Origin: Acidobacteriota bacterium
GTDB lineage: Bacteria; Acidobacteriota; Thermoanaerobaculia; Multivoradales; UBA5704
Direction: 5' to 3'
NCBI GenBank assembly: GCA_040005235.1
Contig: JBDTZG010000004.1
Coordinates: 1 to 64,000 of the forward strand
Length of the DNA: 64,000 nt
This document shows, in pieces, positions 1-52,440 of this stretch. A program made the position numbers and the translations under genes. The first letter of the stretch is position 1. Each line of letters opens with the position of its first letter. A model generated the notes under the pieces. It ran no database searches and had not been told where the DNA came from. It saw only the letters and a list, made by a program, of their open reading frames with translations.

Positions 1-87
1 CAGGCTCAGTGGACCTGAACCTCAGGAAAACGGCCCTTCTGCCACGGGCTGCTAGAGAGGTGAGAGCCTTCAGTCCTGGCGCCGCCG

Positions 88-265
88 CTCGGCGAATGGC
101 GACCGGGATCGAGCCTCTGGGCGCCGCCGCGATCCTCCGCCAGCATCCGTTCACCGAGCCGGTCAAGACCAAGAGGTCCCCCGCGCCGTGGGTCCACGCC
201 GCAAGCAAGAGGGTCCGAACCGAGGTCAAGATCGCCTGTCCTGGTGGCTGCGGTTCCGCGTTTCG
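88..265 (+). pseudogene. C-terminal fragment of HUH/Y1 transposase plus start of its 3' end region
   Basis: Encodes ATGIEPLGAAAILRQHPFTEPVKTKRSPAPWVHAASKRVRTEVKIA, matching the C-terminus of 3449..4396. Followed by CCTGTCCTGGTGGCTGCGGTTCC, similar to 4443-4466. Confidence 0.85.
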
Positions 266-285
266 ACGCTACGGTCCGACGCTTG

Positions 286-564
286 TCAGACCAACTCGAT
301 CTGAAGTTTCCGCCCAACCAGTGCCGCCGCCCGCTGCAGCGTGGAAAGCGTGACATCGCGTGTGGGGTCCAAAAGTCTGTCGACTTGCGATCGGCTGGTT
401 CCAAGCAGCGTGGCAAGGCGAGACTTGCTAAGTGACCGTGCCTGCATTGCGTCAGTCAGCTGCCACACGACAACTTCTTTGATGGCGAGGGCTTGATTTT
501 CCTCGAACGTCCCTTCCTCTCTGAGGAAGTCGTCAAGGGTGCTGCCGTGATGTCGCTTGCTCAT
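286..564 (-). CDS. XRE/HTH antitoxin (HigA-like), orphan
   Basis: HGSTLDDFLREEG ... TSRSQVDRLLDP ... VTLSTLQRAA is typical of HTH antitoxins paired with Gp49/RelE toxins. Confidence 0.8.
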   Translation of the reverse strand: MSKRHHGSTLDDFLREEGTFEENQALAIKEVVVWQLTDAMQARSLSKSRLATLLGTSRSQVDRLLDPTRDVTLSTLQRAAALVGRKLQIELV

Positions 565-614
565 GATTTCAACTCCTTCAGGCGCTTCCGCGCAATAGCG
601 AGATCATTGCTCAG
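561..614 (-). pseudogene. C-terminal tail of a RelE/Gp49-like toxin
   Basis: Reads LSNDLAIARKRLKELKS-stop and overlaps the antitoxin ATG (ATGA). The rest of the gene is absent. Confidence 0.55.
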
Positions 615-740
615 TCATGGCTCACCACGAATCACGTGTACCACGAAAGGTACATCGCCGGCAAGGCCATCGGAGGGCGGGGAAGCAAGCCTGGCGCTGG
701 TCGCGCCCTTTCCGGGGCACCTATTCCCGCTCCACTCAGT

Positions 741-1061
741 TTATGCAGCAGCGGCGGTCACGCGGAGTTTGACCTGGGTCTTCTTCTGAAGCGCGCTAAT
801 GATCGAGAAGAAGTTCTCGGTGCTCGGGTTTCCGTTCGGCCCCAGCATCCGGTGCAAGCTCTTGCTTGGGGTGGCGATTTCGGCCGCAAGGCCTTCGAAA
901 CCGATGGTTGCATTGACGAGGTCGCGCAATACCGCCCTTCCCTCCGCAGTCTGGCCGGCAAGGAATGCGTTGATCGCCTCGCTGAAAAGGGCTTCGCGGA
1001 AGCGGGGGTCGCTGCCAGCGCGAGCCACGATGGTTTCCTTGAAATCCCGTGTCAGTGCCAT
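741..1061 (-). CDS. Addiction-module antidote / HTH antitoxin
   Basis: MALTRDFKETIVAR ... KSLHRMLGPNGNP; lies directly downstream of the killer gene. Confidence 0.8.
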   Translation of the reverse strand: MALTRDFKETIVARAGSDPRFREALFSEAINAFLAGQTAEGRAVLRDLVNATIGFEGLAAEIATPSKSLHRMLGPNGNPSTENFFSIISALQKKTQVKLRVTAAAA

Positions 1062-1085
1062 GTCAAACTCCTCGCTGTTAGAACC

Positions 1086-1418
1086 TTAGGGCCGTTTCTT
1101 GCGCCGTTTATAATCTGCCCAGCGGCCTTGCGCTATCGCAATCGCGTCCTGCTGCCGTTGCTTGCTGCTTCCCCCGAGCAAGATCACGAAGCGATTCCCG
1201 TCCTTCCCAAAGTAGATGCGATAGCCCGGTCCAAAATCGACCTTTCGCTCGAAGACTCCGGAACCGACCCCTTTGACGTTCGAGAAGTTGCCGGCTTCCA
1301 ATCGGTAGAGAGCCATGGCTACCTTCGCCGCCGCTTCGGCGCTCAAGTTGCCGAACCATGCTGCATGAGGTGAGGAGCCTCGCTCATCAAGGTACTCAAA
1401 AAGCTCAATCGGCAGCAT
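1086..1418 (-). CDS. RelE/ParE-family addiction-module killer toxin
   Basis: RLEAGNFSNVKGVGSGVFERKVDFGPGYRIYFGKDG ... ILLGGSSK; ATG at 1418. Confidence 0.85.
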   Translation of the reverse strand: MLPIELFEYLDERGSSPHAAWFGNLSAEAAAKVAMALYRLEAGNFSNVKGVGSGVFERKVDFGPGYRIYFGKDGNRFVILLGGSSKQRQQDAIAIAQGRWADYKRRKKRP

Positions 1419-1467
1419 GAGGTATGGTAACACAAGAGTTACCCAAGATCGGTCCCTCCTTAAACTT

Positions 1468-1552
1468 GGCCGAGCCCTCTGCTCAACGAAGTGATTGTTG
1501 GCGCCCTCGGCCCATGCACAGCGCCTCAATCCGCTCGAAATCTGCGCGCTCT
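1468..1552 (+). pseudogene. N-terminal fragment of HUH/Y1 transposase
   Basis: CTGCTCAACGAAGTGATTGTTGGCGCCCTCGG...CCGCTCGAAATCTGCGCGCTC resembles 3545-3616 and 9505-9575, with indels. Confidence 0.7.
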
Positions 1553-1830
1553 CCCGATTCCCGAAGGAGGCCGGCGGTCGTCCTGTCCCCTGTCGCCCCA
1601 CGAGGATCGGGCTTGTCCTTTGGTTAGGCTGGCACCCAATCCAGGCAGCACCCAATCCAGGCACCCATTCCAGTCCCTTTCACCGAACCGAACTCGTTAC
1701 CGCCGACCTGGATCTCGGCGAGCGGGAGGCGATTGCGCTCGCTCATCTCCTTCGCGCCGATCGGATGCGGGAGAGGGAGCCGGTTATAATGGCTTGGCGA
1801 TCGGCTGTTGCCGATCCGGAGGCCTCTAAC

Positions 1831-2070
1831 ATGCCAAGCTCCGCGACCGTGACGTTTCAGCAGGTTCTGGAGATCGTCGAAGGACTGCCGGAAGACCAGC
1901 AAGGAGAGCTGATCGAGATCGTGCGCCATCGACAGAGAGAGCACCGCCGTGAGACCCTGGCGGCCGGAATCGAACAGGCCCGCGGTGAGTTCGCCCGCGG
2001 AGAAGCTCGGCGCGGCACGGTCGAGGATCTGATGTCGGATCTCGCCGAGAACACCGAGACCAACGAGTGA
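1831..2070 (+). CDS. Putative antitoxin
   Basis: GGAGG RBS; short acidic helical protein whose stop overlaps the toxin start (GTGA). Confidence 0.7.
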   Translation: MPSSATVTFQQVLEIVEGLPEDQQGELIEIVRHRQREHRRETLAAGIEQARGEFARGEARRGTVEDLMSDLAENTETNE

Positions 2071-2351
2071 GAGAGCTGGTCTGGAGCAACACTTTTCGCC
2101 GCGCCTTGCGGCGGACGCTCAAGCGCCAGCCACAGTCCCTCGCCGACATCCAAGCGGCGTTGCGCCTCCTGCAGGAAAATCTTTTCGCCCCCCAGCTCTC
2201 CACCCACAAGCTCAAAGGAAAACTGGCCGGCACCTGGGCCTGCACCGCCGGCTACGACCTCCGCATTCTGTTCGAGCTGGTTCCCAACCCGGAGCGAGTT
2301 GAGGAAGACCTGTTCCTGATCGAAATCGGCACCCACGACGAAGTCTATTGA
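2067..2351 (+). CDS. RelE/YafQ-family mRNA interferase toxin
   Basis: LSTHKLKGKLAGTWAC ... YDLRILF ... IEIGTHDEVY. Confidence 0.85.
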   Translation: MRELVWSNTFRRALRRTLKRQPQSLADIQAALRLLQENLFAPQLSTHKLKGKLAGTWACTAGYDLRILFELVPNPERVEEDLFLIEIGTHDEVY

Positions 2352-2559
2352 AGGCTCCACCAGCTCCGATCGAGACCTGACTACCGCCTAACTAAGACCA
2401 GCTGCAGCTTGCGCTGCCGGCTGCCATTTTCGACCGAGAGCGGTCGTGCTGACCCCTTTCGTCGCTCGAGGATCGGTCCCGTCCTCGGGTTAGGCTGGCA
2501 CCTATTCGGGTTGATCGTTATGACTGCCGAAGTCCCAAAGTCTCGCCGACCGTCACGCG

Positions 2560-3143
2560 GAAGCCACGCGAGCGTTCCCGCGAAGCCACGTAGCATGGGG
2601 GTACGAAGCCACGCCAAACGGGGCTGAAGCAACGCGAACGGACCAAAATCGGCCGCTGGGGCCGGCGAAGCCACCGAGAAATTCGGCGAAGCCACCGAGA
2701 AATTCACTGAAGCCACACATTTAAGGGACGAAGCAACGCTCGGAGCCGGTGAAGCCACGCACATCGCTGGTGAAGCCACTCATCGAATGGCAAAAATTAC
2801 CGAGCCGTCCGCCGGAGTCACCGAGGAATGTGCCAAAATGGCCGGAAAATTCGGTCGATCCACCGATGTGGCGGGTCGACGGCGGGACTTCAGTGAATTT
2901 CTGCGTGGCTTCAGGGGTTTTCTCAGTGGCTTCAGTGAATTTCTCGGTGGCTTCAGCGAATTTCTCAGTGGCTTCAGTGATTTCCTCAGTGGCTTAGGCG
3001 TTCCGCTCTGTGGCTTCACGCCTCGCCGCGGTGAAACCAGCGTTCCGTTGTGTGGCTTCACCGTTCGGCGCGGTGGCTTCACCGTTCTGCCGGGCCGCTT
3101 GAATGATCGGCGCGGCGGCTTCAGCGAATTTCTCTGTGGCTTC
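2560..3143. repeat. Inverted array of 21-bp-period repeats (GAAGCCAC left arm, GTGGCTTC right arm)
   Basis: Left cores at 2560, 2582, 2605, 2626, 2667, 2688, 2709, 2730, 2751, 2772. Reverse-complement cores every 21 nt from 2884 to 3136, some degenerate. Confidence 0.9.
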
Positions 3144-3448
3144 CGGCCGCAACCGAACGACCTTGGCGCCACGACCACTGGTTCGGAGGTTTCGCCGCCC
3201 GCCGGCCTGCAGCGCGGCTCCCCCGTAAAAGATCTCGCGTCTGTCAGGATCTTTTGACACTTAGGTAAGCCCTGCACAATCAGTGCTTTCCACCCGATTG
3301 AATCAGATTTCCCTGGTTACCCCGCAAGATCTTTTGCGGGGTCGGGTCGCTGCCGGGAACTTGATCGCTCGGCGAAAGCCATGCGTTTTCTGTCGTTTCA
3401 CTCGACGCGCCTCGCCTGGCAGGGATTTTGAGATGCCCGGCTGCCGAA

Positions 3449-4396
3449 ATGGCCCGGAAGATCCGATTCACGCCCGAAGGGGGAGCCCTCTACGAGGTGA
3501 CCTGTCGCACGGTCCACAGCCGATTCCTTCTGCGGCCGGGGCCACTGCTCAACGAGATCATCGTTGGCGCGCTCGGCCGAGCGCAGCGCCTCTATCCGCT
3601 GGAGATCTGCGCGCTCATCTTCGCCTCGAATCACTTTCACCTTCTCGCCCGGGCGGAGGACAGCGAGCGCCTGGCCCGCTTCATGGGCTATTTCAACTCG
3701 AAGCTCGCCCGCGAGGTCGCCCGATCGACCGGCTGGCGGGACAAGGTCTTTTCTCGCCGCTACCAGGCGATTCTCGTGAGCGACGAGGAGGAAGCTCAGG
3801 TTGGGCGCCTGGTGTACATCCTCTTGCATGGCTGCAAGGAGAATCTGGTCGCCCGGCCCCAAGACTGGCCGGGGGTTCACTGTGTAACCGCGCTTCTCAC
3901 CGGCCAGCCGATCGAGGGGACCTGGTTCGATCGCACACGGGAATGGGAGGCGCGCTTGTGCGGTCAGGAATTCGGCGCTCGCCAGTTCGCGGAGACCGAA
4001 ACCGTAAGCCTCGCGCCCTTGCCCTGTTTGGCGCATCTCTCGCCCGAGCAGTACCGCGAGCGGATCGCCGAGTTGATCAACACGATCATCGAACAAGCCG
4101 CAGCTCGTCGAGCGGCGACGGGAATCGAGCCTCTGGGCGCCGCCGCGATCCTGCGCCAGCATCCGTTTACCCAGCCGGCCAAGACCAAGAAGTCGCCCGC
4201 GCCGCTCGTCCACGCCGCCAGCAAACGGGTCCGGACGGAGATCAAGAACGCCTACGCCTGGTTCGCCCGGGCTTTCCTAGAGGCGGCGGATTTTCTGCGG
4301 GCCGGAGATCGGCTGGCTCGGTTCCCCGGGGGGAGCTTCCCGCGCGGATTGCCGTTTGTTCGAGCGAGGCGGTTGGCGATCAGCCCAGCGGCGTAG
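3449..4396 (+). mobile_element. Intact HUH/Y1 (IS200-like, RAYT-like) transposase, 315 aa
   Basis: YEVTCRT near the N-terminus, HUH motif SNHFHLL, WRDKVFSRRY, and candidate catalytic Tyr in VYILLHGCKENLV. Confidence 0.85.
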
Positions 4397-4429
4397 GCAG
4401 GACCAGCCGCTTAAAGCCAAAAGGCTTCG

Positions 4430-4660
4430 GATAGCTACGACCGGCTGCCCAGGTGGCTGCGGTTCCACGTTCCGACACCTGGTTCGACCCTCCCGAAGGC
4501 CCTACGAGCTCCGATCTCGACCTGATTTCCACCCAAGACAGGCTGCAGCTCGCGCTGCCGGCCGCCGTTCTCGGCCGGGAGCGGTCGTTCTGACCCCTTT
4601 CGCCGCACGAGGATCGGTCTTGTCCTCGGGTTAGAGTGGCACCTATTCCCGGCACCTATT
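4430..4660 (+). repeat. Conserved 3' end region of the Y1 element ending in hairpin plus GGTTAGAGTGGCACCTATTC
   Basis: Recurs at about 2370-2507, 6251-6482, 8010-8200 and in part 1600-1670. Hairpin CGAGGA-N9-TCCTCG. Confidence 0.85.
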
Positions 4661-4669
4661 TCCGGTGGC

Positions 4670-4945
4670 TCCAAGACTGGCCAGGGGTTCACTGTGTCAC
4701 TGCGCTTCTCACCGGCCAGCAGATCGAGGGGACCTAGTTCGATCGCACACGGGAATGGGTGGCACGGTTACGGGGTAGGGAGGTCGGCGCTCAGTTCGCG
4801 GAAACCGAAGTCGTGAATGTCGCGCCCCTGCCCTGCAGGCAGGATCTTGCGGCAGAGCAATACCGCGATCGGATCGCGGAGTGGTCGTGGCGATCATCGC
4901 CAAGGCTGCCACTCGGCGAGCGGCGATGGGGATCGAGCCTCGGGG
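4670..4945 (+). pseudogene. Internal fragment of the Y1 transposase
   Basis: Similar to the intact gene from about 3860 to 4140, with a stop and deletions; begins right after the end motif. Confidence 0.8.
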
Positions 4946-5000
4946 CGCAAGACTCGCCAGTCCAGGTTGTTGTGATCTAGGATGAAATCGGAGGGACACA

Positions 5001-5276
5001 ATGGTCGTTACGATCAGCCTGCCAGAAGACATCTCTGAATCCCTCGCAGGGCATTGGGGAAACGTGTCTCGCCACGCCCTTGAAGCTATTGCCGTGGAGG
5101 GCTACCGAACGGGCGCTCTGACCGAGACGCAGGTGAGGCGTCTCCTCTGCCTAGAAACGCGGTTCGAGGTCCATGCGCTGTTCAAGGAGCACAGAGTGCC
5201 CCTCCTCTACACGAAAGCCGATCTGGAAGTAGACATCGCCGCCCACCGGGATCTCGGCCTCCTGGCCGGCCGATGA
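5001..5276 (+). CDS. UPF0175-family antitoxin
   Basis: ALEAIAVEGYRTGALT ... RFEVHALFKEH; overlaps the DUF3368 gene (ATGA). Confidence 0.8.
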   Translation: MVVTISLPEDISESLAGHWGNVSRHALEAIAVEGYRTGALTETQVRRLLCLETRFEVHALFKEHRVPLLYTKADLEVDIAAHRDLGLLAGR

Positions 5277-5761
5277 TCGTCATTGCAGACAGCGGGCCGC
5301 TCCACTACCTCATTCTTCTGGACAAGACAGAGCTTCTGCACCGTGTCTACGGGCAGGTCATTGCCCCAGAGGCAGTCCTCAGAGAGTTGACCGTGGCGAG
5401 TGCGCCCCAGCCGGTGAAGGACTGGCTCTCCCTACCTCCTTCCTGGCTGCAGGTCCAAGCGGTGCCTTTCGCTGAAACCGAGCTCGTTACCGCCGACCTG
5501 GATCTCGGTGAACGGGAGGCGATTGCACTTGCTCATCTCCTTCGCGCCGATCTGCTCCTGATCGATGAAGCCGCAGGGCGAGCCGAGGCGCGTCGTCGAA
5601 GCCTGCGAGTGACGGGTACGTTGGGTATCCTTCGGATCGCAGCCGAAAAGGGATGGATCGATCTACCGGAAGTTCTCACTCGCCTGCGCTGTACGAGCTT
5701 CTATGTGAACGAGGACCTGCTCAGGTCGATCTTCGGTCAGTGGCTGGGAGAAGTTGAATAA
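5273..5761 (+). CDS. DUF3368 PIN-domain toxin
   Basis: MIVIADSGPLHYL ... LDLGEREAIALA ... LLIDE ... GTLGIL. Confidence 0.85.
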   Translation: MIVIADSGPLHYLILLDKTELLHRVYGQVIAPEAVLRELTVASAPQPVKDWLSLPPSWLQVQAVPFAETELVTADLDLGEREAIALAHLLRADLLLIDEAAGRAEARRRSLRVTGTLGILRIAAEKGWIDLPEVLTRLRCTSFYVNEDLLRSIFGQWLGEVE

Positions 5762-5774
5762 CCGAGCTCAGATA

Positions 5775-6484
5775 GGTGGCGCGGCCAAGAATTCGGCGCT
5801 CGACAGTTCGCGGAAAGCGAAACCGTAAGCCTCGCGGTCTTGCCCTGTTTGGCGCACCTCTCGCCCGAGCAGTACCGCGAGCGGATTGGCGAGTTGATCA
5901 ACACGATCATCGAACAAGCCGCAGCTCGTCGAGCGGCGACGGGAATCGAGCCTCTGGGCGCCGCCGCGATCCTGCGCCAGCATCCGTTTACCCAGCCGGC
6001 CAAGACCAAGAAGTCGCCCGCGCCGCTCGTCCACGCCGCCAGCAAACGGGTCCGGACGGAGATCAAGAACGCCTACGCCTGGTTCGCCCGGGCTTTCCTA
6101 GAGGCGGCGGATTTTCTGCGGGCCGGAGATCGGCTGGCTCGGTTCCCCGGGGGGAGCTTCCCGCGCGGATTGCCGTTTGTTCGAGCGAGGCGGTTGGCGA
6201 TCAGCCCAGCGGCGTAGGCAGGACCAGCCGCTTAAAGCCAAAAGGCTTCGGATAGCTACGACCGCCTGCCCTGGTGGCTGCGGTTCCACGTTCCGACACC
6301 TGGTTCGACCCTCCCGAAGGCCCCACGAGCTCCGATCTCGACCTGATTTCCACCCAAGACCGGCTGCAGTTCGCGCTGCCGGCCGCCGTTCTCGGCCGGG
6401 AGCGGTCGTTCTGAGCCCTTTCGCCGCACGAGGATCGGTCTTGTCCTCGGGTTAGGCTGGCACCTATTCCGGGCACCTATTCCG
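5775..6484 (+). pseudogene. 3' half of the Y1 transposase plus end region, near-identical to about 3965-4660
   Basis: Direct repeat at offset 1821, identical over most of its length. Confidence 0.9.
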
Positions 6485-6612
6485 GCAGATCGATCTCCCT
6501 GAAGTCCTCGCTCGCTTGCGCCGTACGAGCTTCTATGTGAGCGAGGACCTGATCCGGTCGATCTTCGGTCGGTGGCTGGGGGAAGTTGAATGATCGGCCG
6601 ATAGAAATTGAT

Positions 6613-6921
6613 AGCCGCGATCCTCCGGCAGCAACCGTTCACCCAACCGGCCAAGACCAAGAGGTCCCCCGCGCCGTGGGTCCACGCCGCCAGCAAGAGG
6701 GTCCGAACCGAGGTCAAGATCGCCTACGCCTGGTTCGCCAGGGCTTTTCGAGAAGCGGCGGAGAATGCGGGCCGGCGATCGACTGGCTCGGTTTCCCCGG
6801 GGTTGCTTTCCTCCCGGTCTGCCGTTTGTCCGAGCGGATCGGTTGGCGATCGGGCCCGATCTATTGCGGCGCCGAGCGCCGAAGGCTGGGCGGGGTCGGG
6901 CCGCAGGTTAAGGTGGCACCT
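6613..6921 (+). pseudogene. Y1 transposase C-terminal fragment and end motif
   Basis: AAILRQQPFTQPAKTKRSPAPWVHAAS, frameshifted; GGTTAAGGTGGCACCT at 6906-6921. Confidence 0.8.
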
Positions 6922-6952
6922 GTCTGGCGCGCCTCAAGCGGCGTCCCGCGCC

Positions 6953-7144
6953 TCAAGCGGCGTCCCGAGAATTGCTTTCGCTAGCTTCACCATGGCCTTC
7001 TGGCCCATAGATCAGCCGTCCCTTAAACTGTGCCTGCAACTCCTCGTAGTGGGCAATCAACCGAGCCGGATCGTTACCGAACTCCCGCGAAATCTCGCTA
7101 CGGATCTTTCGGACCGCGGCGAGAGCCGGATCATCCTTGGTCAT
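6953..7144 (-). CDS. Small putative antitoxin downstream of the PIN toxin
   Basis: MTKDDPALAAVRKIRSEISREFGND; overlaps the 3' end of the toxin gene. Confidence 0.65.
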   Translation of the reverse strand: MTKDDPALAAVRKIRSEISREFGNDPARLIAHYEELQAQFKGRLIYGPEGHGEASESNSRDAA

Positions 7145-7616
7145 CGCTGCCTCCAAGCATTTCAAGCGGAGTGACGAGAGAGGGACTCAAGAGTCCGAGA
7201 AGGCTATTAACACGTCGGATATGTCCGAACTTGTTGGCGTTCGCCAGGTGCTTGCAGTTCCACGTCACGAGAAAGTCACAGCGGTGGTAGGAAGCGAGAG
7301 CCAGGTGCAGCGCGTCCCCCGCAGGATCCGCGGGCATAACTTGGTGGCGAATGTACCCCGCAACGATTTCGAGGACTGCCGGTTCGATAGCCAGAGCAGG
7401 AAGTTCTGCTACCAAATCAAGGCAGGCCTGCCGCGACGGAAAGTCCCCCCTCCCCAGTTCTTCGACGACGGCCAGGCTCGTAACCAACTCGACCGTGTCT
7501 GAGGCCCGGGCCCACCACTCGCGTGTCCACTCGCGACGCGCCACCATCTCAGCCTCCGGCCTCGTTTCGAAGTAGAAGCTGGGGATCGAAGTCTCCACGT
7601 ACGCGCGGCTTCTCAT
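7131..7616 (-). CDS. PIN-domain (VapC-like) toxin
   Basis: AYVETSIPS ... DALHLALAS ... DFLVTWNCKHLANA. Confidence 0.85.
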   Translation of the reverse strand: MRSRAYVETSIPSFYFETRPEAEMVARREWTREWWARASDTVELVTSLAVVEELGRGDFPSRQACLDLVAELPALAIEPAVLEIVAGYIRHQVMPADPAGDALHLALASYHRCDFLVTWNCKHLANANKFGHIRRVNSLLGLLSPSLVTPLEMLGGSDDQG

Positions 7617-7696
7617 GAGAGCCTCAGTCTACCGCGCGGCGGCGGAAGCTCAATCAGGGATAACGAGTAGAGTGTCTCCCGGCCTCTGATGTCGCC

Positions 7697-8205
7697 TCGG
7701 CGAGTGGTGACGGGAATCGAATCTCTGGGCGCCGCCGCGATCCTCCGGCAGCATCCGTTCACCCAGCCGGCGAAGACCAAGAAATCCCCCGCGCCGTGGG
7801 TCCACGCCGCCAGCAAAAGGGTCCGAACCGAGGTCAAGATCGCCTACGCCTGGTTCGCCAGGGCATTTCGAGAAGCGGCGGAGAATCTGCGGGCCGGCGA
7901 TCGGCTGGCTCGGTTTCCCCGGGGTTGGTTTCCTCCCGGTCTGCCGTTTGTTCGGTTGGCGATCAGGCCGGCCACCTAGACCAGGGCCAGCCGCCTATCC
8001 CAAATCTTCAAATCGCTACGACCGCCTGTCCTGGTGGCCCCGCAGGCTCCGAGAGCGGCATGATTTCGCCTAAGACCGGCCGTAGGTCGCCCTGCCGGAG
8101 TCAGTTTTCGTCCAGGAAGCGGTCGTCCTGTCTCGTCGTCGCACGAGGATCGGTCTCGTCCTCGGGTTAGGATGGCACCTATTCGGGCCACCTATTCGGC
8201 ACCTG
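7697..8205 (+). pseudogene. Y1 transposase C-terminal fragment plus end region
   Basis: TGIESLGAAAILRQHPF ... FPPGLPFV; GGTTAGGATGGCACCTATTC at 8165-8184 followed by tandem variants. Confidence 0.85.
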
Positions 8206-8328
8206 CTCCCGCGTGGCTCAGAGAACGGCGGGGGCGACCAGCAGGCAGCGCCTTTGATTTTGTGGCGCGTGTGATTAAACCTTAAGCGACGCCGATAACG
8301 AAGAAGGATAAGTGGAAATATTTAGCCA

Positions 8329-9111
8329 GTGAGAAACTTAGCGGCGCGAAGAAGAGCCTGGGTCAAGGCGGGGCAAAGAACGCGCCCGAGGAGGAATCTC
8401 GCTCTGCTCTATGGAGTTCTCTACCTAGCAACTATTCCTGTCTTTGCAGCGATCTACACTCGATTGCCACGAGGCTTTTACCATGCAACCGCTAGGCACG
8501 AGATCGGAGCAATGCAGGCGAGGGTTGAGGCCGGAGCGGACGTTCTAGGATGGTTGCAAGGTGTGGTGATGGATCAGAGGTTGTACGTTTCAGGAATAGG
8601 CGACCTCGGAACGAATCCCGAGCTTGTAGGGATGAATCTGAAGGCGTCGGTGCATTTTTTTGGCGGTGGTGAGGAAGGGAAGATAGCAGAGCGTAATGTC
8701 GATATAAGCATCGCCGAGCGTGGATTTGTCTTGGGCATGAAAGGTGGCAGGATAGGTGCAATATATGTAGTGAAAATTAATGCTGCTGGCAAGACAATCA
8801 ATGATTTGAGAGAGATTTTTAAGTGCAGAACGGGGGAAAGTGACTCGAGCATTTGCTGTGTCGAGATGCCAGTCGAGGTTGCTGAGTCTATCGAAACATT
8901 AGACCGAGTGGAGGCGGGTTTTCCCGCCGAAAGCGGAAGTTTCGAGCGGATGCTGTACTTGAGTGCTGTGATTGCAACTACTGTGGGATTCGGTGATATT
9001 GTGCCACTGACGGTTACCGCCAGAACCGCAGTGGGAATCGAGGCTGTTCTCGAGATCATCCTGATTGGGCTGTTTCTGAACGCGCTTGCGACGAAGGCAG
9101 GCGGGCCCTAG
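8329..9111 (+). CDS. Two-TM potassium-channel-family protein
   Basis: C-terminal pore motif YLSAVIATTVGFGDIVP plus a TM helix; visibly AT-richer than the core genes. Confidence 0.75.
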   Translation: MRNLAARRRAWVKAGQRTRPRRNLALLYGVLYLATIPVFAAIYTRLPRGFYHATARHEIGAMQARVEAGADVLGWLQGVVMDQRLYVSGIGDLGTNPELVGMNLKASVHFFGGGEEGKIAERNVDISIAERGFVLGMKGGRIGAIYVVKINAAGKTINDLREIFKCRTGESDSSICCVEMPVEVAESIETLDRVEAGFPAESGSFERMLYLSAVIATTVGFGDIVPLTVTARTAVGIEAVLEIILIGLFLNALATKAGGP

Positions 9112-9408
9112 CTAGCTCAGCTAGGGGGCCCGCCCCCGGAAGGTGCCATGCGATCCTAGAAGCTCGAATCAGAGACGCCGACTCGCCCCCCGCAAAAGAT
9201 CTGGCGGACCGTCAAGATCTTTTGCACCCCCTGCCGCGCAGAGAGGAATCGGCGGGGATTTCCTCGATCGTCGCCTCGGCTTTGGCCAGATCCCTTGCGC
9301 CTCGGACGGACACTCAGCTCCGGCGCGACGACTCTAAGTTGCTGCTTCTCATGCAGCTAGCCCCTAGTGGGCAGATTGGCACTGACCTTGAGTTGCTGGC
9401 AGACTGCC

Positions 9409-10347
9409 ATGCCTCGCAAGATTCGCTTCACGCCCGAAGGCGGCGCCCTTTACGAGGTCACCTGCCGCACGATCCAGAGCTGATTCCTGCTGCGGCCGAG
9501 CCCTCTTCTCAACGAGGTCATCCTCGGCGCGCTCGGCCGCGCTCAGCGACTCTACCCGCTCGAAATCTGCGCGTTCTTCTTCGTTAGTAATCACTTCCAC
9601 CTCTTGGCGCGCGCAGACGACAGCCAGCGCCTCGCCAACTTCATGGGCTATTTCAACTCCAAGCTCGCCCGAGAGGTGGGTCGGCTGACCGGCTGGCGCG
9701 ACAAGATCTTTGCTCGCCGCTACCAGGCGATCCTGGTCAGTGAAGAAGAGGAAGCCCAGGTCGGGCGCTTGCTCTATCTGCTCTCTCATGGCGCCAAGGA
9801 GAACCTGGTCGCCGACCTTCGGGAGTGGCCGGGCGTTCACTGCGTCGATGCCCTTCTGACCGGTGAATCTTTGGAAGGCACCTGGTTCGATCGGACGGAG
9901 GAGTACACCGCCCGCCAGCGCGGCGGGGAATTCGGCGCCCGCGAATACTCCAGCGCCGAGACCGTCGCGTTGACACCCCTGCCCTGTTGGGCCGACCTCT
10001 CGCCGGAGGAATACAAGGCGCGAATTGCCGATCTCCTTGAAGCGATCGTCACCGGAGCCGCCAATCGGCGATCGGCGACGGGGATCCAGCCGCTCGGCCG
10101 GGCCGCGATCCTGAGCCAGCATCCGTTTTCCCAGCCCACCAAGACCAAGAAGTCGCCCGCCCCGCTCGTCCACGCCGCCAGCAAGCGCGTCCGCACCGAG
10201 ATCAAGATCGCCTATGCCTGGTTCGTGAGGGTATTCCGGGAAGCAGCCGAGTACCTGCGCGCCGGGGACCGCCTCGCCCGATTCCCGAAGGGGAGCTTCC
10301 CTCCCGGTCTACCCTTCGTCCGAGCGGCGGTCGGCCCGGCGGGTTGA
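9409..10347 (+). pseudogene. Full-length Y1 transposase with one in-frame stop
   Basis: ATG 9409 (MPRKIRFTPEGGALYEVTCRT); TGA at 9481-9483 where the 3449 copy has CGA; SNHFHLL is retained. Confidence 0.85.
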
Positions 10348-10939
10348 CCGCCGGCGGCGCCGGCCGCTCCACGCCATGATTCATCGCTACGACACAAACT
10401 ATCGGCGGTGCCTACCGCCGAAGGCCGAGCCGCACTCGTCGGCCGTGGTGAAGACCTGCTATTCAATGACTCTCTTCCCGAATGTGAATCGTCGCGACCG
10501 CCGGCTGCCTAAACCGGGACACTCGAACGGCCTTTGAAGCTCTTCTGGCAGAGGGGGATCTGGTTGGCTGCCTCTACTTGGCTGGCACCTCTTGCCGGGC
10601 GCCTATTCCACACCTATTCCGGGCGGCACCTATTCGTGATGGAGCGTTTCTTCCCGATTTCTCGCGTTCTTAGAAGGAAGCGATATCGGAGGTCGCGGTC
10701 GGACGGGAGGTCCCATGGAAGCCAATGGTCTGGTGTCATTGCTGATTGCGGTCATCGGTCTGGTGCTCATGTTCGCTCAACTCAAACTATTCTCGATCGA
10801 CAGCAGCTTAAAGCGGATTGTTGATCTGCTCGAACGCGGCGCCAAAGAGGAAGGGAGGGGGCCGTCCGGAGATTAGGCTGGCACCTATTCCGGGCTGTTG
10901 GCTGCCTCTACTTGGGTGGCACCTCTTGCTGGCGAACCA

Positions 10940-11095
10940 CGTGAAGGCGATCTTCATCGCGGTCCGAACCCGTTTGCTGGCAGCGTGGACGAGCGGCGCA
11001 GGCGATCTCTTGGTCTTGGTCGGCTGGGAGAACGGGTGCTGTCGGAGGAAGGCGGTCCGGCCGAGTGGCTCGATTCCGGTTTCGGCTCGGCGAGG
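10940..11095 (-). pseudogene. Inverted Y1 transposase fragment
   Basis: Reverse strand resembles the TGIEPLGR ... QHPFSQPTKTKRSPAPLVHAASKRVRT segment. Confidence 0.75.
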
Positions 11096-11130
11096 GTCGC
11101 TCTCGGTTAAGCTGGCACCTATTTTGGCAC

Positions 11131-11721
11131 CTATTTTGGGCTTGAAATCGGTGTACGTTCTTGCCCTTCAGGCACCACCTCGGAGGTGGCCTGACCGGTG
11201 GCCAGGCCCTCGTGCATCCACGCGTCCGACCGTTCAGTCGGTGACGCATTGTAGGGCGGCAGCGAGTTCATGAACTGAATGAAATCAGAATCGAATTGAG
11301 ATGAGAGTTCGAGATCCCAAGCCCGTCTGAAATTGGAACGCGAGAGCCACCAGCGCATATAGTCGCACCACCCGGTCCATTGTTTGTTGGCTGGATCAGG
11401 ATGCCCACGGTACAAGAGAAATGCCTGTTCCATGACCGAAACCAGTATATTGAAAGCAATCCATTCGCGTTTCACGTCGCGTGGAGTGGACGCCCCAGGA
11501 GAAACGAGATCGTAGATATCGAGTTCCGGATGCTCGAAGCACAACTTTAGGTACTCGATGTATTGATTGTTCGGGGATAAGTAGATCTGAGCCTGCCGCT
11601 CAAACCGCTCTCGACGCTGCTCAAACCAGAAGACCAGAATAGCAATCGGGATACCCAAGAACGTTGCGGCCGAGGCCAGAGCGTCGAGCCAATCCTTGAG
11701 CGCTGAGTCAATTTGCGGCAT
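11131..11721 (-). CDS. Hypothetical membrane-anchored cassette protein
   Basis: N-terminal TM segment, GGGAGG RBS, and GTTAGGC 34 nt upstream on the coding strand. The C-terminus runs into element DNA. Confidence 0.7.
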   Translation of the reverse strand: MPQIDSALKDWLDALASAATFLGIPIAILVFWFEQRRERFERQAQIYLSPNNQYIEYLKLCFEHPELDIYDLVSPGASTPRDVKREWIAFNILVSVMEQAFLLYRGHPDPANKQWTGWCDYMRWWLSRSNFRRAWDLELSSQFDSDFIQFMNSLPPYNASPTERSDAWMHEGLATGQATSEVVPEGQERTPISSPK

Positions 11722-11944
11722 GTGCCTCCCGGTGGCGAAGTATCGCTCTGAATCTGCCTAACGGTCTGACGATAATCACTGTCGCCCCGAGGCCCACGGA
11801 GTGTTTATGCCGCTACCTGGCTCCCTGAGGCCTCGGCATCCCAGAAGGAACTTCCCAGTGGTGCTCTGCGGCTTAGCGTCAAAGCTATGCGAGCTGGCAC
11901 GCCGCGTCAACTCGGAGCTTCGTGACGGAAGGTAACCAGCCGTC

Positions 11945-12240
11945 GTGTAGGCGATCTTCATCTCGGTTCGAACTCGTTTCGCTGGCGGCGTGGACGGGCG
12001 GCGCGAGAAATCTCTTGGTCTCGGTCTGCTGAGAGAACGGGTGCTGTCGGAGGACGGCGGCCCGGCCGAGGGGCTCGATTCCCGTTTCGGCTCGGCGAGC
12101 AGCGGCCTTGGCGATGATCGCCTCGACCAACTCCGCGATCCGCTTGAGGTACTGCTCCGCCGAAAGATCTCTCGCCAGTAGGGCAAGGGCGCGAGACCTA
12201 CGGTTTCGGTTTCCGCGAACTACCGAGTACCGAATTCCTT
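11945..12240 (-). pseudogene. Inverted Y1 transposase fragment
   Basis: DLSAEQYLKRIAELVEAIIAKAAARRAETGIEPLGRAAVLRQHPF. Confidence 0.8.
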
Positions 12241-15239: not shown

Positions 15240-15812
15240 ATGAGCCAGTACGACTTCGAGAATCCAGACCCCGATGAGTCGCCTGCGGAATTCCCGCACG
15301 AGGAAAGAACCCTCGCCCAGTGCCTCGGCGAAACTGTCCTCTGGTTTGAGGAACTTGATGACTAGCTCTCGACGGCGATCTCCTTCCTTTTGCGGCGTGG
15401 CGAGGAAGTGGGACGAATCGTAACTTGCGAACTCTCCTTCAAAGCTAAGGTCAACCTCGTCGAGGTACTCTTCCGCCACGAGAGGCCGGAATCGAAGCAT
15501 TTAGACTCTCTCCGGCAACTCTGCGGCGCCTGCCTCCAGATCGAGCAGCGGCGCAATCAGGTCATGCATTCGAACTGGCGCCCGGTCGTCAATGGCACAG
15601 GCGTTACTCGCCACAAGTACACTGCTCGCGGAAAGCACGGACTTCGTGACCAGGCCGAAGTGCTTTCCCTAAACCAAGTCGAGGCAGTCTGGTGTCACTG
15701 CGGGTTTCTGGGTCATTGCGTGGACGAACTGATGTTCTGGGAGTTCGATGTCGAGTACGGCACCCTCGAGGACCCACCCGAGGTAAGGGCCGCTGGCTAC
15801 CGCATCGACTAA
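15240..15812 (+). pseudogene. Hypothetical cassette gene with a nonsense codon
   Basis: AGGAG RBS, ATG at 15240, in-frame TAG at 15363-15365; the frame continues to 15812. Confidence 0.65.
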
Positions 15813-15895
15813 ACTTGCCAAAAATTTTCCTGAGCACATGCCCCGCTGGCTACCGCATCGACTAAACTTGCCAAAAATTTTCCTGAGCACATGCC
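15790..15895 (+). repeat. Perfect 53-bp tandem duplication
   Basis: CCGCTGGCTACCGCATCGACTAAACTTGCCAAAAATTTTCCTGAGCACATGCC occurs twice in tandem. Confidence 0.95.
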
Positions 15896-15919
15896 CCGTC
15901 GGCTAACCCTGAGCCCAGT

Positions 15920-49464: not shown

Positions 49465-52440
49465 ATGCACCCTCGTGCGCTGTTCGCCGCCCTTTCCGCT
49501 GCCTTGAACCGTAGCTGTAGGCCGGTCCCACGAACGGCTGTGTCGATCCGCTCGCGATACGGCGCTTTCCTAGCATTCTTTTTCCTGGCAGCTGTTCCGG
49601 CCTTGCCGCAGGGCCATGCACAAGTCGAGTTCCTCACCTACCTGCCTCACACCGAAGCGAAGCTATCCGCACTGGTCAGCGGAATGCTGAGCGACAGAGA
49701 GGTCGAGGTGAACGTGTCACCTCTCCTAGATGGGAGCCATCGCCCGTTTCACCTCCAACTCCCTAATGGGGAGCAGTACCTGGTAACCGGTGCGCGTGAG
49801 GCTCTCAAGAATTCAAGGATATATACTTGGCAGGGGACTCTCTTGGTTTCCGGTGAGCGCGTAGGTCAAATCGTGATCAGCGTTCAGAACGGAGCCATCG
49901 CCGGGAAGATCTACACCAAAGAGGTGACTTACGTACTGTCTCCGCTCGGAAATGGCAGGGCAATCCTTTCACAACTCGACGATCCCGAGCCCTTGCCCTG
50001 TGGCGTCTCTCCTGAGGACGTCGTAATTGTTCGAGAGGGCAGTGACGGGGTCGCCTCAAGCCCTCCCTCGGTTTCTCCCTATGCTGAGGACGGCTCCATC
50101 ATTGACGTGCTCGTGTTCTACACGGCACAGGCACGCGAGATCGCTGGCGGGCGCGACAACGTCGAGTCCACTATCCTGATGGCTGTCAGCGACGCAAATC
50201 TCGCTTTCCAAAACAGCGAAGTCAGTACCCGTTTTAACCCGGTCGGCGTTCAAGAGATCGAGTACGAGGAGACCAGGAGCAGCGAAAGCGATTTGAATTG
50301 GCTAACGAACGACGACACCGTAGCTCAAATCCGGAACGAGCTTGCTGCCGACTTGGTTGGTATGGTGGTGTCCGTTATCGACGGCGATGGAGGGAGAGCG
50401 CGCATCATGGGACCCAACGACGTGGGCACCGGCTTTGCGCCCTATGCTTTCCAGGTCTCCGCCTGGAGTGGCCTGAATTTTCAAATTTTGGCTCATGAGT
50501 TCGGCCATTCTATGGGTGCCACTCATAATGTCGAGGTACCGGGTAGTGGTACTCCAGCTTTTCCTTACGGCCACGGTCATTACGTGGATGGCTCATTCCG
50601 GACCATCATGTCCTACCCAAACCTGGTTTATTGCCCGCACTCTTGCCCTGTGGTCCCGCATTTCTCTAATCCCGCGGTCGAAATAAATGGCGATCCGACC
50701 GGAGTGGCAGAGGAGCAGGATAACCACCGGGTTCTGAACCAGACGGCGGTCTATGTAGCGAACTTCCGAGTGCCTCTGCCCCGAACCCCGGAAAATGTTC
50801 AGGCATCGGACGGCACCTACATGGATCGCGTCCGAACCACGTGGAACTCTGTCGACAGGGCGGAGTTTTACGCGCTCTATCGCTCTGCCTCCACAACCGG
50901 CCCGAAGACGGCTATTGCGAGTTCCTTAGCTTTGACAAGCTTCGATGATACCTCGGCAATCGCGGGTACGACCTACTATTATTGGGTCAAGGCATCGAAC
51001 TCGGCTGGCTCAAGCAACCTCAGTCCCTACAACACTGGCTATCGCGCGGCGGCTCCTCCAGCGGCGCCGACGGGAGTTTCGGCAACGGATGGTGCTTACA
51101 CAGACCGCGTGCGGATCACCTGGAGCACGGTGTCCGGAACGACTTACTCCGTTTTCCGCGCGACCTCGACAAGCGGCGCTAAAACGTCCATCGCGACCTC
51201 CTTAACATCAACAAACTTCGATGACGCCTCGGTAATCGGGGGCACGACCTACTATTATTGGGTCAAGGCTTCGAACTCATCCGGTTCGAGTGACTTCAGT
51301 TCCTACAACACTGGCTATAGCGCGGTTGCTCCTCCAGCGGCACCTGCGGGGGTTTCGGCCACTGATGGCACCTACACAGACCGCGTGCGGATCACCTGGA
51401 ACGCGGTGTCCGGGGCGACGTACTCCGTCTTCCGAGCGACGTCGACAAGCGGCACCAAGACGACCCTCGCGACCTCCTTGACTGCGACCAGCTTGGATGA
51501 CACCTCGGCGGTCGCTGGCCAGACCTATTATTACTGGGTCAAAGCGATGAACTCATCCAGCTCGAGCGATTTCAGCTCCTACAACACCGGCTATCGCGCG
51601 GTTGCTCCCCCAGAGGCCCCGACGGGGGTTTCGGCTACTGACGGCACCTACACAGACCGTGTGTGGATCACCTGGAACGCGGTGTCTGGAGCCACGACGT
51701 ATTCCGTCTTCCGAGCCACGTCAACAAGCGGCGCCAAGACAACCATTGCAACCTCCTTAACGTCGGCCAGCTTCGATGACACCTCGGGAGCCGCGGGTAC
51801 GACCTATTATTACTGGGTCAAGGCATTGAATTCATCCGGCTCAAGCGACTTCAGTTCCTACAACGCTGGCTACCGTGCGGCTGCCCCTCCAGCGGCACCG
51901 ACGGGGGTTTCGGCAACAGATGGCTCGTACACAGACCGCGTGCGGATCACCTGGAACACGGTGTCTGGGGCGACTTATTTCGTCTACCGAGCGACCTCGA
52001 CAAGCGGCACCAAGACGACCATCGAAAACTCCTTAACTTCGACAAGTTTCGATGACACCTCGGCAGTCGCGGGTACGATCTACTATTATTGGGTCAAGGC
52101 ATCGAGTTCATCTGGCTCAAGTGACTTCAGTTCCTACAACACTGGCTATCGCGCGGTTGCTCCCCCAGTGGCACCGACTGGAGTTTCCGCAACCGATGGC
52201 ACTTACACAGACCGTGTGCGGATCACCTGGAACGCGGTCTCCGGAGCCTCCGGATACGTGGTTTATCGAGCGACATCAACGAGCGGGACCAAGACTGTCT
52301 TGGCATACTCATTGGCATTCACGAGCTTCGATGACACCTCGGCGATCGCGGGCACAACCTACTACTACTGGGTCAAGGCATCGAACTCATCCGGCTCAAG
52401 TGACTTAAGTTCTTACAACACCGGCTATCGGAGGAGATAG
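49465..52440 (+). CDS. Secreted reprolysin/M12-like zinc metalloprotease with six FN3 repeats
   Basis: IIDVLVFYT, HEFGHSMGATH, Met-turn FRTIMSY; six approximately 92-aa repeats of the APTGVSATDGTYTDRVRITW type. Confidence 0.9.
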   Translation: MHPRALFAALSAALNRSCRPVPRTAVSIRSRYGAFLAFFFLAAVPALPQGHAQVEFLTYLPHTEAKLSALVSGMLSDREVEVNVSPLLDGSHRPFHLQLPNGEQYLVTGAREALKNSRIYTWQGTLLVSGERVGQIVISVQNGAIAGKIYTKEVTYVLSPLGNGRAILSQLDDPEPLPCGVSPEDVVIVREGSDGVASSPPSVSPYAEDGSIIDVLVFYTAQAREIAGGRDNVESTILMAVSDANLAFQNSEVSTRFNPVGVQEIEYEETRSSESDLNWLTNDDTVAQIRNELAADLVGMVVSVIDGDGGRARIMGPNDVGTGFAPYAFQVSAWSGLNFQILAHEFGHSMGATHNVEVPGSGTPAFPYGHGHYVDGSFRTIMSYPNLVYCPHSCPVVPHFSNPAVEINGDPTGVAEEQDNHRVLNQTAVYVANFRVPLPRTPENVQASDGTYMDRVRTTWNSVDRAEFYALYRSASTTGPKTAIASSLALTSFDDTSAIAGTTYYYWVKASNSAGSSNLSPYNTGYRAAAPPAAPTGVSATDGAYTDRVRITWSTVSGTTYSVFRATSTSGAKTSIATSLTSTNFDDASVIGGTTYYYWVKASNSSGSSDFSSYNTGYSAVAPPAAPAGVSATDGTYTDRVRITWNAVSGATYSVFRATSTSGTKTTLATSLTATSLDDTSAVAGQTYYYWVKAMNSSSSSDFSSYNTGYRAVAPPEAPTGVSATDGTYTDRVWITWNAVSGATTYSVFRATSTSGAKTTIATSLTSASFDDTSGAAGTTYYYWVKALNSSGSSDFSSYNAGYRAAAPPAAPTGVSATDGSYTDRVRITWNTVSGATYFVYRATSTSGTKTTIENSLTSTSFDDTSAVAGTIYYYWVKASSSSGSSDFSSYNTGYRAVAPPVAPTGVSATDGTYTDRVRITWNAVSGASGYVVYRATSTSGTKTVLAYSLAFTSFDDTSAIAGTTYYYWVKASNSSGSSDLSSYNTGYRRR

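Follow-up and report, generated by a model that had tools for sequence, protein, structure and literature searches.

Plasmid iterons are arrays of repeats served by a Rep protein, and iteron control loci are known from P1 (incC and incA, with RepA), R6K and pPS10. Plasmid centromeres likewise lie beside the gene of their binding protein, as in sopB-sopC of F, ParR-parC of R1 and TubR-tubC, in which TubR is a winged-helix protein. In Bacillus subtilis, the small winged-helix protein RTP dimerises through a helical element; its polar Ter sites are set in opposed orientation, and its gene adjoins two of them. In this study, a 64-kb window (contig C35:1-64000 of G000, the genome under study, which comprises 6.22 Mb in 140 contigs) was analysed, and all coordinates refer to this window unless another contig or locus is named. 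Judged from sequence comparison, window positions 2524-3209 are a non-coding foldback array, an orphan copy of a two-part module that consists of a gene of about 168 amino acids (aa), here called X, and an array after its stop codon. We propose that the array is a lattice of putative X-binding sites and that the X gene on contig C24 supplies, in trans, the protein for the orphan window copy, and we put the probability of this reading at about 0.6.

The array, its copies and its link to gene X

All 16 matches of GAAGCCAC in the window were confined to positions 2560-3143, with eight on the plus strand (starts at 2560, 2582, 2605, 2667, 2688, 2709, 2751 and 2772) and eight on the minus strand (starts at 2905, 2926, 2947, 2968, 3010, 3052, 3073 and 3136). 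The number expected by chance was 2.6 (standard deviation, SD, 1.7), and none of 100 dinucleotide-preserving shuffles of the window reached 16. The consensus of the 21-nucleotide (nt) unit is GAAGCCAC followed by CGAGAAATTCACT, and a period of 21 was detected at 2663-2716, 2888-2995 and 3054-3123 (Tandem Repeats Finder). The initial annotation had described a palindromic array of an 8-nt core plus a variable spacer, and the distribution of the core on both strands in a 21-nt phase agrees with this description. However, the strict phasing that it assigned to the whole 580 bp holds only from 2667 rightwards, since the outer cores are spaced 22, 23 and 21 nt apart. Its mutually complementary spacers were recovered as well: the 50-nt stretches 2667-2716 and 2926-2975 are 94% complementary, the arms not being in mirror register about the centre. 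The arm-to-arm offset was 7 modulo 21 in 23 of 26 copies.

From left to right, the element begins with an outer, X-distal tail (2524-2666, plus strand) that carries four cores, GAAGCCAC at 2560, 2582 and 2605 and GAAGCAAC at 2626; similarity to the copies on contigs C7, C24, C54 and C74 sets in at 2524-2560 (blastn). Within this tail, at 2641-2664 on the minus strand, which is the strand of gene X, a terminator-like G+C hairpin (2664-2650) is followed by ATTTTGG. The inner left (X-distal) arm (2667-2863, plus strand) consists of 10 units of 21 nt, with cores at 2667, 2688, 2709, 2730, 2751, 2772, 2814 and 2856 and degenerate ones at 2793 and 2835. The repeat orientation flips in the centre (2864-2883), where GTCGAC is found at 2875-2880. 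The right (X-proximal) arm (2884-3143, minus strand) has 13 units of 21 nt, of which eight contain perfect cores and those at 2884, 2989, 3031, 3094 and 3115 are degenerate. The X-proximal tail (3144-3209, minus strand) is homologous to the sequence directly after the X stop codon in complete modules, and gene X itself is absent; homology of this tail to the module on contig C55 of the related genome G002 (G002:C55) has its start 1 nt short of where the X stop codon ends, and the orthologue in genome G003 stops there as well. The 21-nt units are not self-complementary. The G+C content of the array is 55-59% compared to 65.9% for the genome, and the AT skew switches sign from +0.48 to -0.51 across the array centre. 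A promoter scan found no sigma-70 consensus promoter in or beside the window array.

A clustered regularly interspaced short palindromic repeat (CRISPR) array, already dismissed in the initial annotation, was rejected here too. Such an array would need direct repeats of about 23-55 nt in one orientation with unique spacers, whereas the window array has an 8-nt core in a 21-nt unit, in both orientations, with spacers that are variants of one consensus. The open reading frames (ORFs) within 8 kb of the array comprise transposase, toxin-antitoxin and unknown genes, no search directed at cas genes having been made.

G000 holds five homologous copies of about 620 bp, on contigs C35 (the window), C74, C54, C7 (reversed) and C24. 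The other copies were 65-72% identical to the window copy, and the cores and the 21-nt phase were kept in all of them. When 40 related genomes were searched, multiple copies were found in six of the seven other genomes of the genus, one weak match was obtained among 17 other genomes of the family, and none of the 16 genomes from other families of the order gave a match. The window array is homologous over its full length to the C24 and G002:C55 modules, with the post-stop tail included (nhmmer, blastn). The G003 orthologue of the window array is 92% identical and sits in a rearranged context; thus, its roughly 620 bp behave as one discrete block. The differences between the two orthologues comprise 22 substitutions, a complete 21-nt unit, a deletion of 3 nt and three 1-nt indels, two of which lie 40 nt apart and compensate each other.

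For the arrays L023, L028 and L029 (G002:C65, G004:C13 and G004:C164), the distal end is found 20-100 nt upstream of where a member of one gene family begins (N-terminus MSSSFFERPILNSPYDYP...); the array and its neighbour may have been duplicated together, or this may be a preferred site. Short-read assemblies break within arrays, and in G003 the orthologue of the C24 module is divided between the ends of two contigs (C88 and C1). The array was present in contigs of four public DNA runs, none of which spans the whole window array, and one of these runs carries three base variants of the G003 copy. A literature search found nothing on inverted tandem repeats in Thermoanaerobaculia and, on bacterial foldback elements, only work on a nematode transposon.

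Gene X was recognised as the gene adjoining the C24 array, and a flank search in related genomes found it recurring beside arrays elsewhere. X reads toward the array, and its stop codon (...IPE-x-x-E*) lies directly before the first units. The linkage was scored at 37 loci as an autocorrelation at 21/42 nt with z>=3 in the 900 nt beside a full-length X. A periodic signal was found downstream of X in 29 of 36 loci, upstream of it in 5 of 36, and on either side in 34 of 37, compared to 45 of 3000 random 900-nt pieces of G000. The array lies upstream of X in some genera. A genome-wide search for such arrays and their neighbouring genes had been suggested in the initial annotation; the gene that goes with the arrays is X.

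Each of the four X paralogues in G000 (on C24, C21, C28 and C87) is followed by its own foldback array, with the cores GAAGCCAC, GAGATCAC, (A)CATCA(C) and TGCAACGC, respectively. Further cores at other X loci are GAAGTCAC, GAAGTCCC, GCATCAC, GTGACGC and TCCGGACG. The core sequence varies by X subfamily, and the 21-nt phase is constant. Identical recognition helices in different genomes go with the same core (L046/L047, L069/L074 and L041/L054), and the helices of L043 and L055 differ from those of L041/L054 by 1-2 residues.

The loci form a series, with X running from intact (C24, G002:C55) through frameshifted (G002:C9) and stubs to none (window). The stubs amount to the last 40 codons in G002:C99 and the last 9 in C74, and the window homology starts at the X stop codon; L020 has a frameshifted X, and L022, L001 and L050 have C-terminal stubs. 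The simplest reading of the orphans is that the module was duplicated and the redundant X was then lost. At C74 (L001:3327-3360), a gene for an NAD-binding dehydrogenase-like protein ends in ...LLATIPEVEE*, the C-terminal codons of X, and the X-proximal stub of the array has replaced the native end of this gene. Its homologue at G002:C39 ends in ...FGEVGQG*, without an array.

This series is also compatible with arrays that are functionless relics of a mobile foldback-type element, copied in the past and now represented by decaying orphans. In line with this possibility, the dispersed copies are 65-80% alike, the distal boundary is sharp (at model position ~75 in 12 of 26 copies, with small core palindromes at this end) while the X-proximal boundary is ragged across copies, and the window copy is located inside an island of transposase fragments and toxin-antitoxin genes. 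However, the cores of orphan pairs change at half the rate of the spacers (see below), and the C7 copy, together with its left flank, is retained in G002, while G003 has this copy as well. Moreover, the flanks of C74, C54, C7 and C24 in five related genomes displayed rearranged contexts, with neither a target-site duplication nor a clean empty site. We regard a relic origin without present function as unlikely.

Gene X and its predicted product

The X protein of contig C24 has 169 aa. A protein collection contained 31 homologues, all annotated as 'hypothetical', and the named ones came from Thermoanaerobaculia bins; the position of the stop codon is common to 28 of 29 aligned homologues. No match to X was found in Pfam, NCBIfam, PADLOC or PDB sequences, and none of 29 sequences matched PHROGs; NCBIfam yielded a lone sub-threshold match to SlyA (E 0.025). 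Scores in the ESM Atlas were below 0.9. An AlphaFold2 model built from 29 sequences (mean predicted local distance difference test score, pLDDT, 71) contains a long N-terminal helix (residues 4-42, pLDDT > 90), a disordered Pro/Ala-rich linker (residues 46-88) and a C-terminal region (residues 94-169) of the order H-b-H-H-b-b, which is a predicted winged helix. This predicted domain was aligned to the DNA-binding domains of SarA, SarS, YtfH, Z-alpha, MarR and Fur with Z 7-8 (VIA-align), and the top Foldseek match of X was Sso10a-2 (E 6.5e-3).

X was present in 40 of 61 genomes of the family and in 6 of its 11 genera, and a genome with X had between 1 and 16 matches. Complete genomes consisting of a single contig have 5-7 matches each, and the copies sit among chromosomal genes. 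In a sample of the class, X was found in 2 of 200 other genomes, both belonging to the same family; in a sample of the phylum, it was found in none of 300 other genomes at E<=1e-6, with a profile that is possibly too narrow, most of its sequences being from a single clade of X.

A conserved extended -10-like element (TGTGCTGCAATCC, TGTGATGCAATCC, TGCGTTACAATCC and similar; TGnTGCAAT-like) was observed about 10-15 nt upstream of the X start, at L004:5800-5850 (C24) and in the equivalent stretch before every X paralogue. The sequence suggests that the X mRNA may be leaderless or near-leaderless. In C87, C28 and G011, the -10-like element overlaps a copy of the paralogue's own core, and autoregulation of X is therefore hinted at in these subfamilies.

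Constraint on the array and its possible role

Four close array pairs with 82-92% identity, three of them pairs of orphans, were compared site by site. In the core (positions 1-8), 27 of 535 sites had changed (5.0%), compared to 87 of 869 sites (10.0%) in the spacers and 76 of 739 sites (10.3%) in the unphased parts, which gives an odds ratio of 0.48 for the core versus the rest (P 8e-4, Fisher). Since the core rate is half of the spacer rate, and this mostly in orphan pairs, the orphan arrays still keep their cores. Core constraint was likewise seen in the information content of 214 phased units. Sorted by codon class, the information content of these units was 0.90, 1.01 and 0.93 bits, and the substitutions in the four close pairs were 8.8, 8.1 and 7.5%. 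The array lacks codon periodicity, contains stops and frame-breaking indels, and is non-coding.

These data bear directly on the possibility that the region encodes a heptad-repeat protein in one gene or in two convergent ones, with EATEKFx on the core strand and GFSEFLG on the other. A unit of 21 nt equals seven codons, and the consensus unit has two stop-free frames per strand (EATEKFT and KPPRNSL versus SEFLGGF and VNFSVAS); as the consensus is stop-free on both strands, open frames are to be expected and are little informative. The plus-strand SEFLGGF frame was stop-free in all 26 right arms (column-shuffle null 4.1, SD 1.9, P ~0.012), and the EAT frame had 10 stops versus 16.3 expected. 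However, the column-shuffle null ignores kinship and mixes consensus-type with distal-type units, and it carries little weight. Neither the conservation nor the substitutions follow codon position, and the EAT and KPPRNSL frames are stopped in 7 and 9 of the 26 right arms, respectively; in the window, the EAT frame has a TAA at 2993-2995, which is GAA in G003. The frame shifts between arms in 3 of 26 copies, a 22-nt unit occurs in G007:C565, and the outer window cores, 22 and 23 nt apart, are out of frame. Furthermore, the stop codon of X that precedes the array is conserved, and the SEFLGGF frame has no conserved start: the ATG at 2838 is replaced by GTG in G003, and L003, L004 and L035 lack it. 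The 156-aa ORF on the plus strand (2787-3257) gave only four partial matches (35-54% coverage) among 5.8 billion protein clusters, and a repeat followed by its own reverse complement is unexpected for a protein. A heptad-repeat protein is very unlikely.

The initial annotation had offered a long single-stranded fold-back of DNA or RNA as an alternative to a protein-binding lattice. The element would then work either as a hairpin of the X mRNA, within its 3' untranslated region, through stability, processing or double-stranded RNA, or as a DNA cruciform, and the pairing of the arms would be what matters. The fold prediction that had been called for gave a strong structure, with -175.7 kcal/mol for 2540-3210 as single-stranded DNA (z -9.0 versus 20 dinucleotide shuffles), but any inverted array of one repeat would fold likewise. 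When the order of the right-arm units was shuffled, the arrays folded equally well; the natural order of the 26 copies had z values from -2.2 to +2.8 with a mean of ~+0.2, and only one copy fell below -2. In complete modules, the phased arms are bounded by the X stop codon on one side and by the G+C hairpin with its TTTTGG on the other, the stem sequence of this hairpin varies among copies with pairing kept, and the core changes jointly on both arms in every paralogue, all of which would suit an RNA element. Nevertheless, the arms of paralogues are unequal (about 2 versus 13-17 units in L045, 2 versus at least 7 in L050, and 13 versus 4 in L040), the array is found upstream of X at the 5 of 36 loci mentioned above, and the spacer positions that would be paired change twice as fast as the core. 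In addition, orphans without an X promoter still keep their cores, and no Rfam family matched, window 2000-3600 giving only a chance-level hit to IMES-4 (E 0.86). A fold-back is thus possible on energy, but the unit-order shuffles and the unequal arms display no sign of selection for it, and we hold such a role to be doubtful.

The lattice of putative binding sites is favoured because the core is more constrained than the spacers and because the phase is kept while the core changes with the X subfamily. A protein-binding lattice had been put forward initially on the ground that 21 bp is two helical turns; the comparative evidence favours this part of the proposal and replaces the transposase, which had been named as the partner, by X. 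We infer from sequence both the binding of X to the core and its binding to double-stranded DNA. In the proposed mechanism, the winged helix of X would read the 8-bp core, and the 21-bp spacing, which corresponds to two turns of B-DNA, would align all bound X molecules along one face of the duplex. Each arm would become a polar protein-DNA filament, and the two filaments would point at each other. The window copy, having no adjacent X, would be bound in trans by the intact X of C24, whose array shares its core. Our guess is that the coated array would be a high-capacity sink and/or a polar roadblock within X's own transcription unit, and that the orphan copies would place the same block elsewhere; the preference for a sink and/or a polar block is drawn by analogy with the iteron control loci and RTP-Ter.

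Several points weigh against a lattice of X-binding sites. The winged-helix matches of the X model are generic and assign no family, Z values of 7-8 being typical of the best matches of unrelated models. Because the X loci counted are mutually related, the linkage counts overstate the independent support. The X proteins of C21 and G002:C55 have a near-identical recognition helix with the cores GAGATCAC and GAAGCCAC, respectively; as near-identical helices go with different cores, helix residues and core bases do not covary cleanly, and automatic core extraction for this comparison was noisy. Finally, the array is probably transcribed together with X, since the X stop codon precedes it and a conserved terminator-like hairpin follows it, and this would fit the RNA element too.

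We also speculated that X and its array may form a minimal self-propagating element, a bacterial counterpart of the eukaryotic foldback elements with several orthogonal specificity classes per genome. In that case, X would recruit the host replication or repair machinery to the convergent polar arrays, and orphans such as the window copy would be non-autonomous, copying having started at the fixed distal end and proceeded inward. Alternatively, the convergent polar sites may be a trap or guide for a DNA-tracking machine, a miniature trap laid out like KOPS around dif or Ter around the terminus. Even when these two possibilities are taken jointly, they appear improbable.

The neighbourhood and known systems

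The transposase that had been reported next to the array is indeed present. An IS200-like Y1 transposase unit occupies 3221-4665 on the plus strand, and its ORF (3428-4396) matches PF01797 with 23.2 bits versus the Pfam cut-off of 23. The 3' flank of this transposase unit also occurs by itself, as a solo copy at 2350-2510 on the plus strand that is 82-83% identical to 4495-4648 and 6316-6472. Neither is part of the element; the window array is wedged between these two pieces and ends 12 nt before the complete unit.

Given this arrangement, the neighbouring HUH (Y1, IS200-like) transposase might act on the array or generate it, in the way that RAYT serves REP/BIME repeats. REP/BIME are dispersed intergenic repeats in both orientations, with units that are imperfect palindromes of 20-40 nt and clusters located at or around the Y1 gene, and RAYT is a Y1 enzyme. 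The window array abuts the complete unit on one side and the solo 3' flank on the other, its G003 orthologue also abuts transposase fragments, and the small core palindromes at the distal end would suit such an enzyme. Moreover, 6 of the 26 full arrays with flanks have a transposase fragment within 2 kb, and only 0.58% of G000 is that close to a Y1 locus. However, the other 20 arrays have no such fragment within this distance, and where one is present (three of the six cases have X alongside), its side, strand, orientation and distance vary. The 15 loci of this Y1 family in G000 are all on two contigs (C35 and C18), four of the five G000 arrays are elsewhere and one is near a Y1 locus, the 21-nt units are not individually palindromic, and the arrays track gene X. 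The proposed tie between the array and the HUH enzyme did not hold up and is highly improbable; the position of the array next to the transposase looks incidental, with some co-location in plastic regions and no specific link.

The island at window 1-12000 contains 11 loci of one IS200-like Y1 family on C35, two of them near full length and the rest fragments. Toxin-antitoxin genes are interleaved, with a YafQ-like toxin at 2067-2351 and PIN-like ORFs, recognised by eye, at 5273-5761 and 7131-7616. Tandem repeats of 12-13 nt were observed at the 3' flanks of transposase units (4638-4665, 6459-6485, 11113-11139 and 1631-1673); their units are GGCACCTATTCC-like, with GGCACCCAATCCA at 1631-1673, and they may be the end structure of the transposase element. 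Elsewhere in the window, a 276-bp tandem repeat (5.6 copies, 81% matches) at 50888-52430 probably encodes repeated protein domains, and a 53-bp tandem repeat (2.2 copies, 96% matches) lies at 15790-15905.

For annotation, 600-bp stretches of this kind are neither genes nor CRISPR arrays, and they break short-read assemblies. The purposes considered for them are a titration sink, a roadblock, a chromosome-structuring hub and a new selfish element. If the lattice of X-binding sites is true, one Acidobacteriota family would have several orthogonal protein-DNA address systems with 20-25 sites each, and the natural specificity variants, each a winged helix paired with an 8-bp core, would be usable for the study of DNA recognition.

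Compared with known systems, the arrays resemble REP/BIME in being dispersed repeats in both orientations, with a Y1 transposase next door in the window. However, their units lack palindromic symmetry and follow a strict 21-nt phase, and for most copies even the nearest Y1 gene is far away; REP/BIME served by RAYT were rejected as an identification, given units that are not self-complementary and 20 of 26 arrays without a Y1 fragment within 2 kb. The foldback (FB) transposons of Drosophila and other eukaryotes have long inverted arms of short tandem repeats with a variable number of units. The inverted arms built of tandem repeats are shared with the arrays described here; in contrast, the host is a bacterium, the arms nearly touch, the arrays have no transposase, no target-site duplication was found, and their mobility is putative.

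According to a report on Streptomyces TraB and clt, this system has an 8-bp core and cognate specificity (PMC4447253). An 8-bp core is common to clt and the X arrays, and cognate specificity would be as well. However, X lacks the FtsK-like translocase domain of TraB, and the clt repeats are direct only and are not dispersed as orphan copies. The plasmid centromeres are similar in that at least 10 repeated sites lie directly beside the gene of a small binding protein, which is putative here. In contrast to them, no conserved NTPase gene like ParA, ParM or TubZ is apparent as an operon partner of X, whose neighbours differ per locus (these were not scanned against Pfam), and many paralogues and orphan arrays are found on one chromosome.

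With RTP-Ter, the module shares a winged helix combined with a long helix (both predicted for X), opposed polar sites and a gene beside its sites. Nevertheless, RTP forms one system per genome with few sites, whereas X arrays have 20-25 phased units. In the complete genome G255, the orientation of X displayed no obvious replichore rule, assuming that the record starts at the origin.

Iterons are alike in their short repeats phased at about two helical turns with a conserved core and a variable spacer; they, too, adjoin the gene of a winged-helix protein, their specificity differs among relatives, and arrays without the gene could be sinks. The 21-nt phase falls within the 17-22 bp expected of such repeats, and 34 of the 37 X loci have an array next to the gene. 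However, X has a single predicted winged helix and no match to a Rep family (Pfam, NCBIfam, PHROGs), its arrays are chromosomal with two convergent arms, and the window copy has no X. Iteron origins belong to plasmid or phage replicons and carry DnaA boxes and an A+T-rich region for unwinding; the G+C content of the window array drops no lower than 55-59%. If X coats these arrays, they would be a chromosomal, multi-paralogue form of the plasmid principle of a protein plus its iterons, with an unusual convergent architecture and free-standing satellite arrays.

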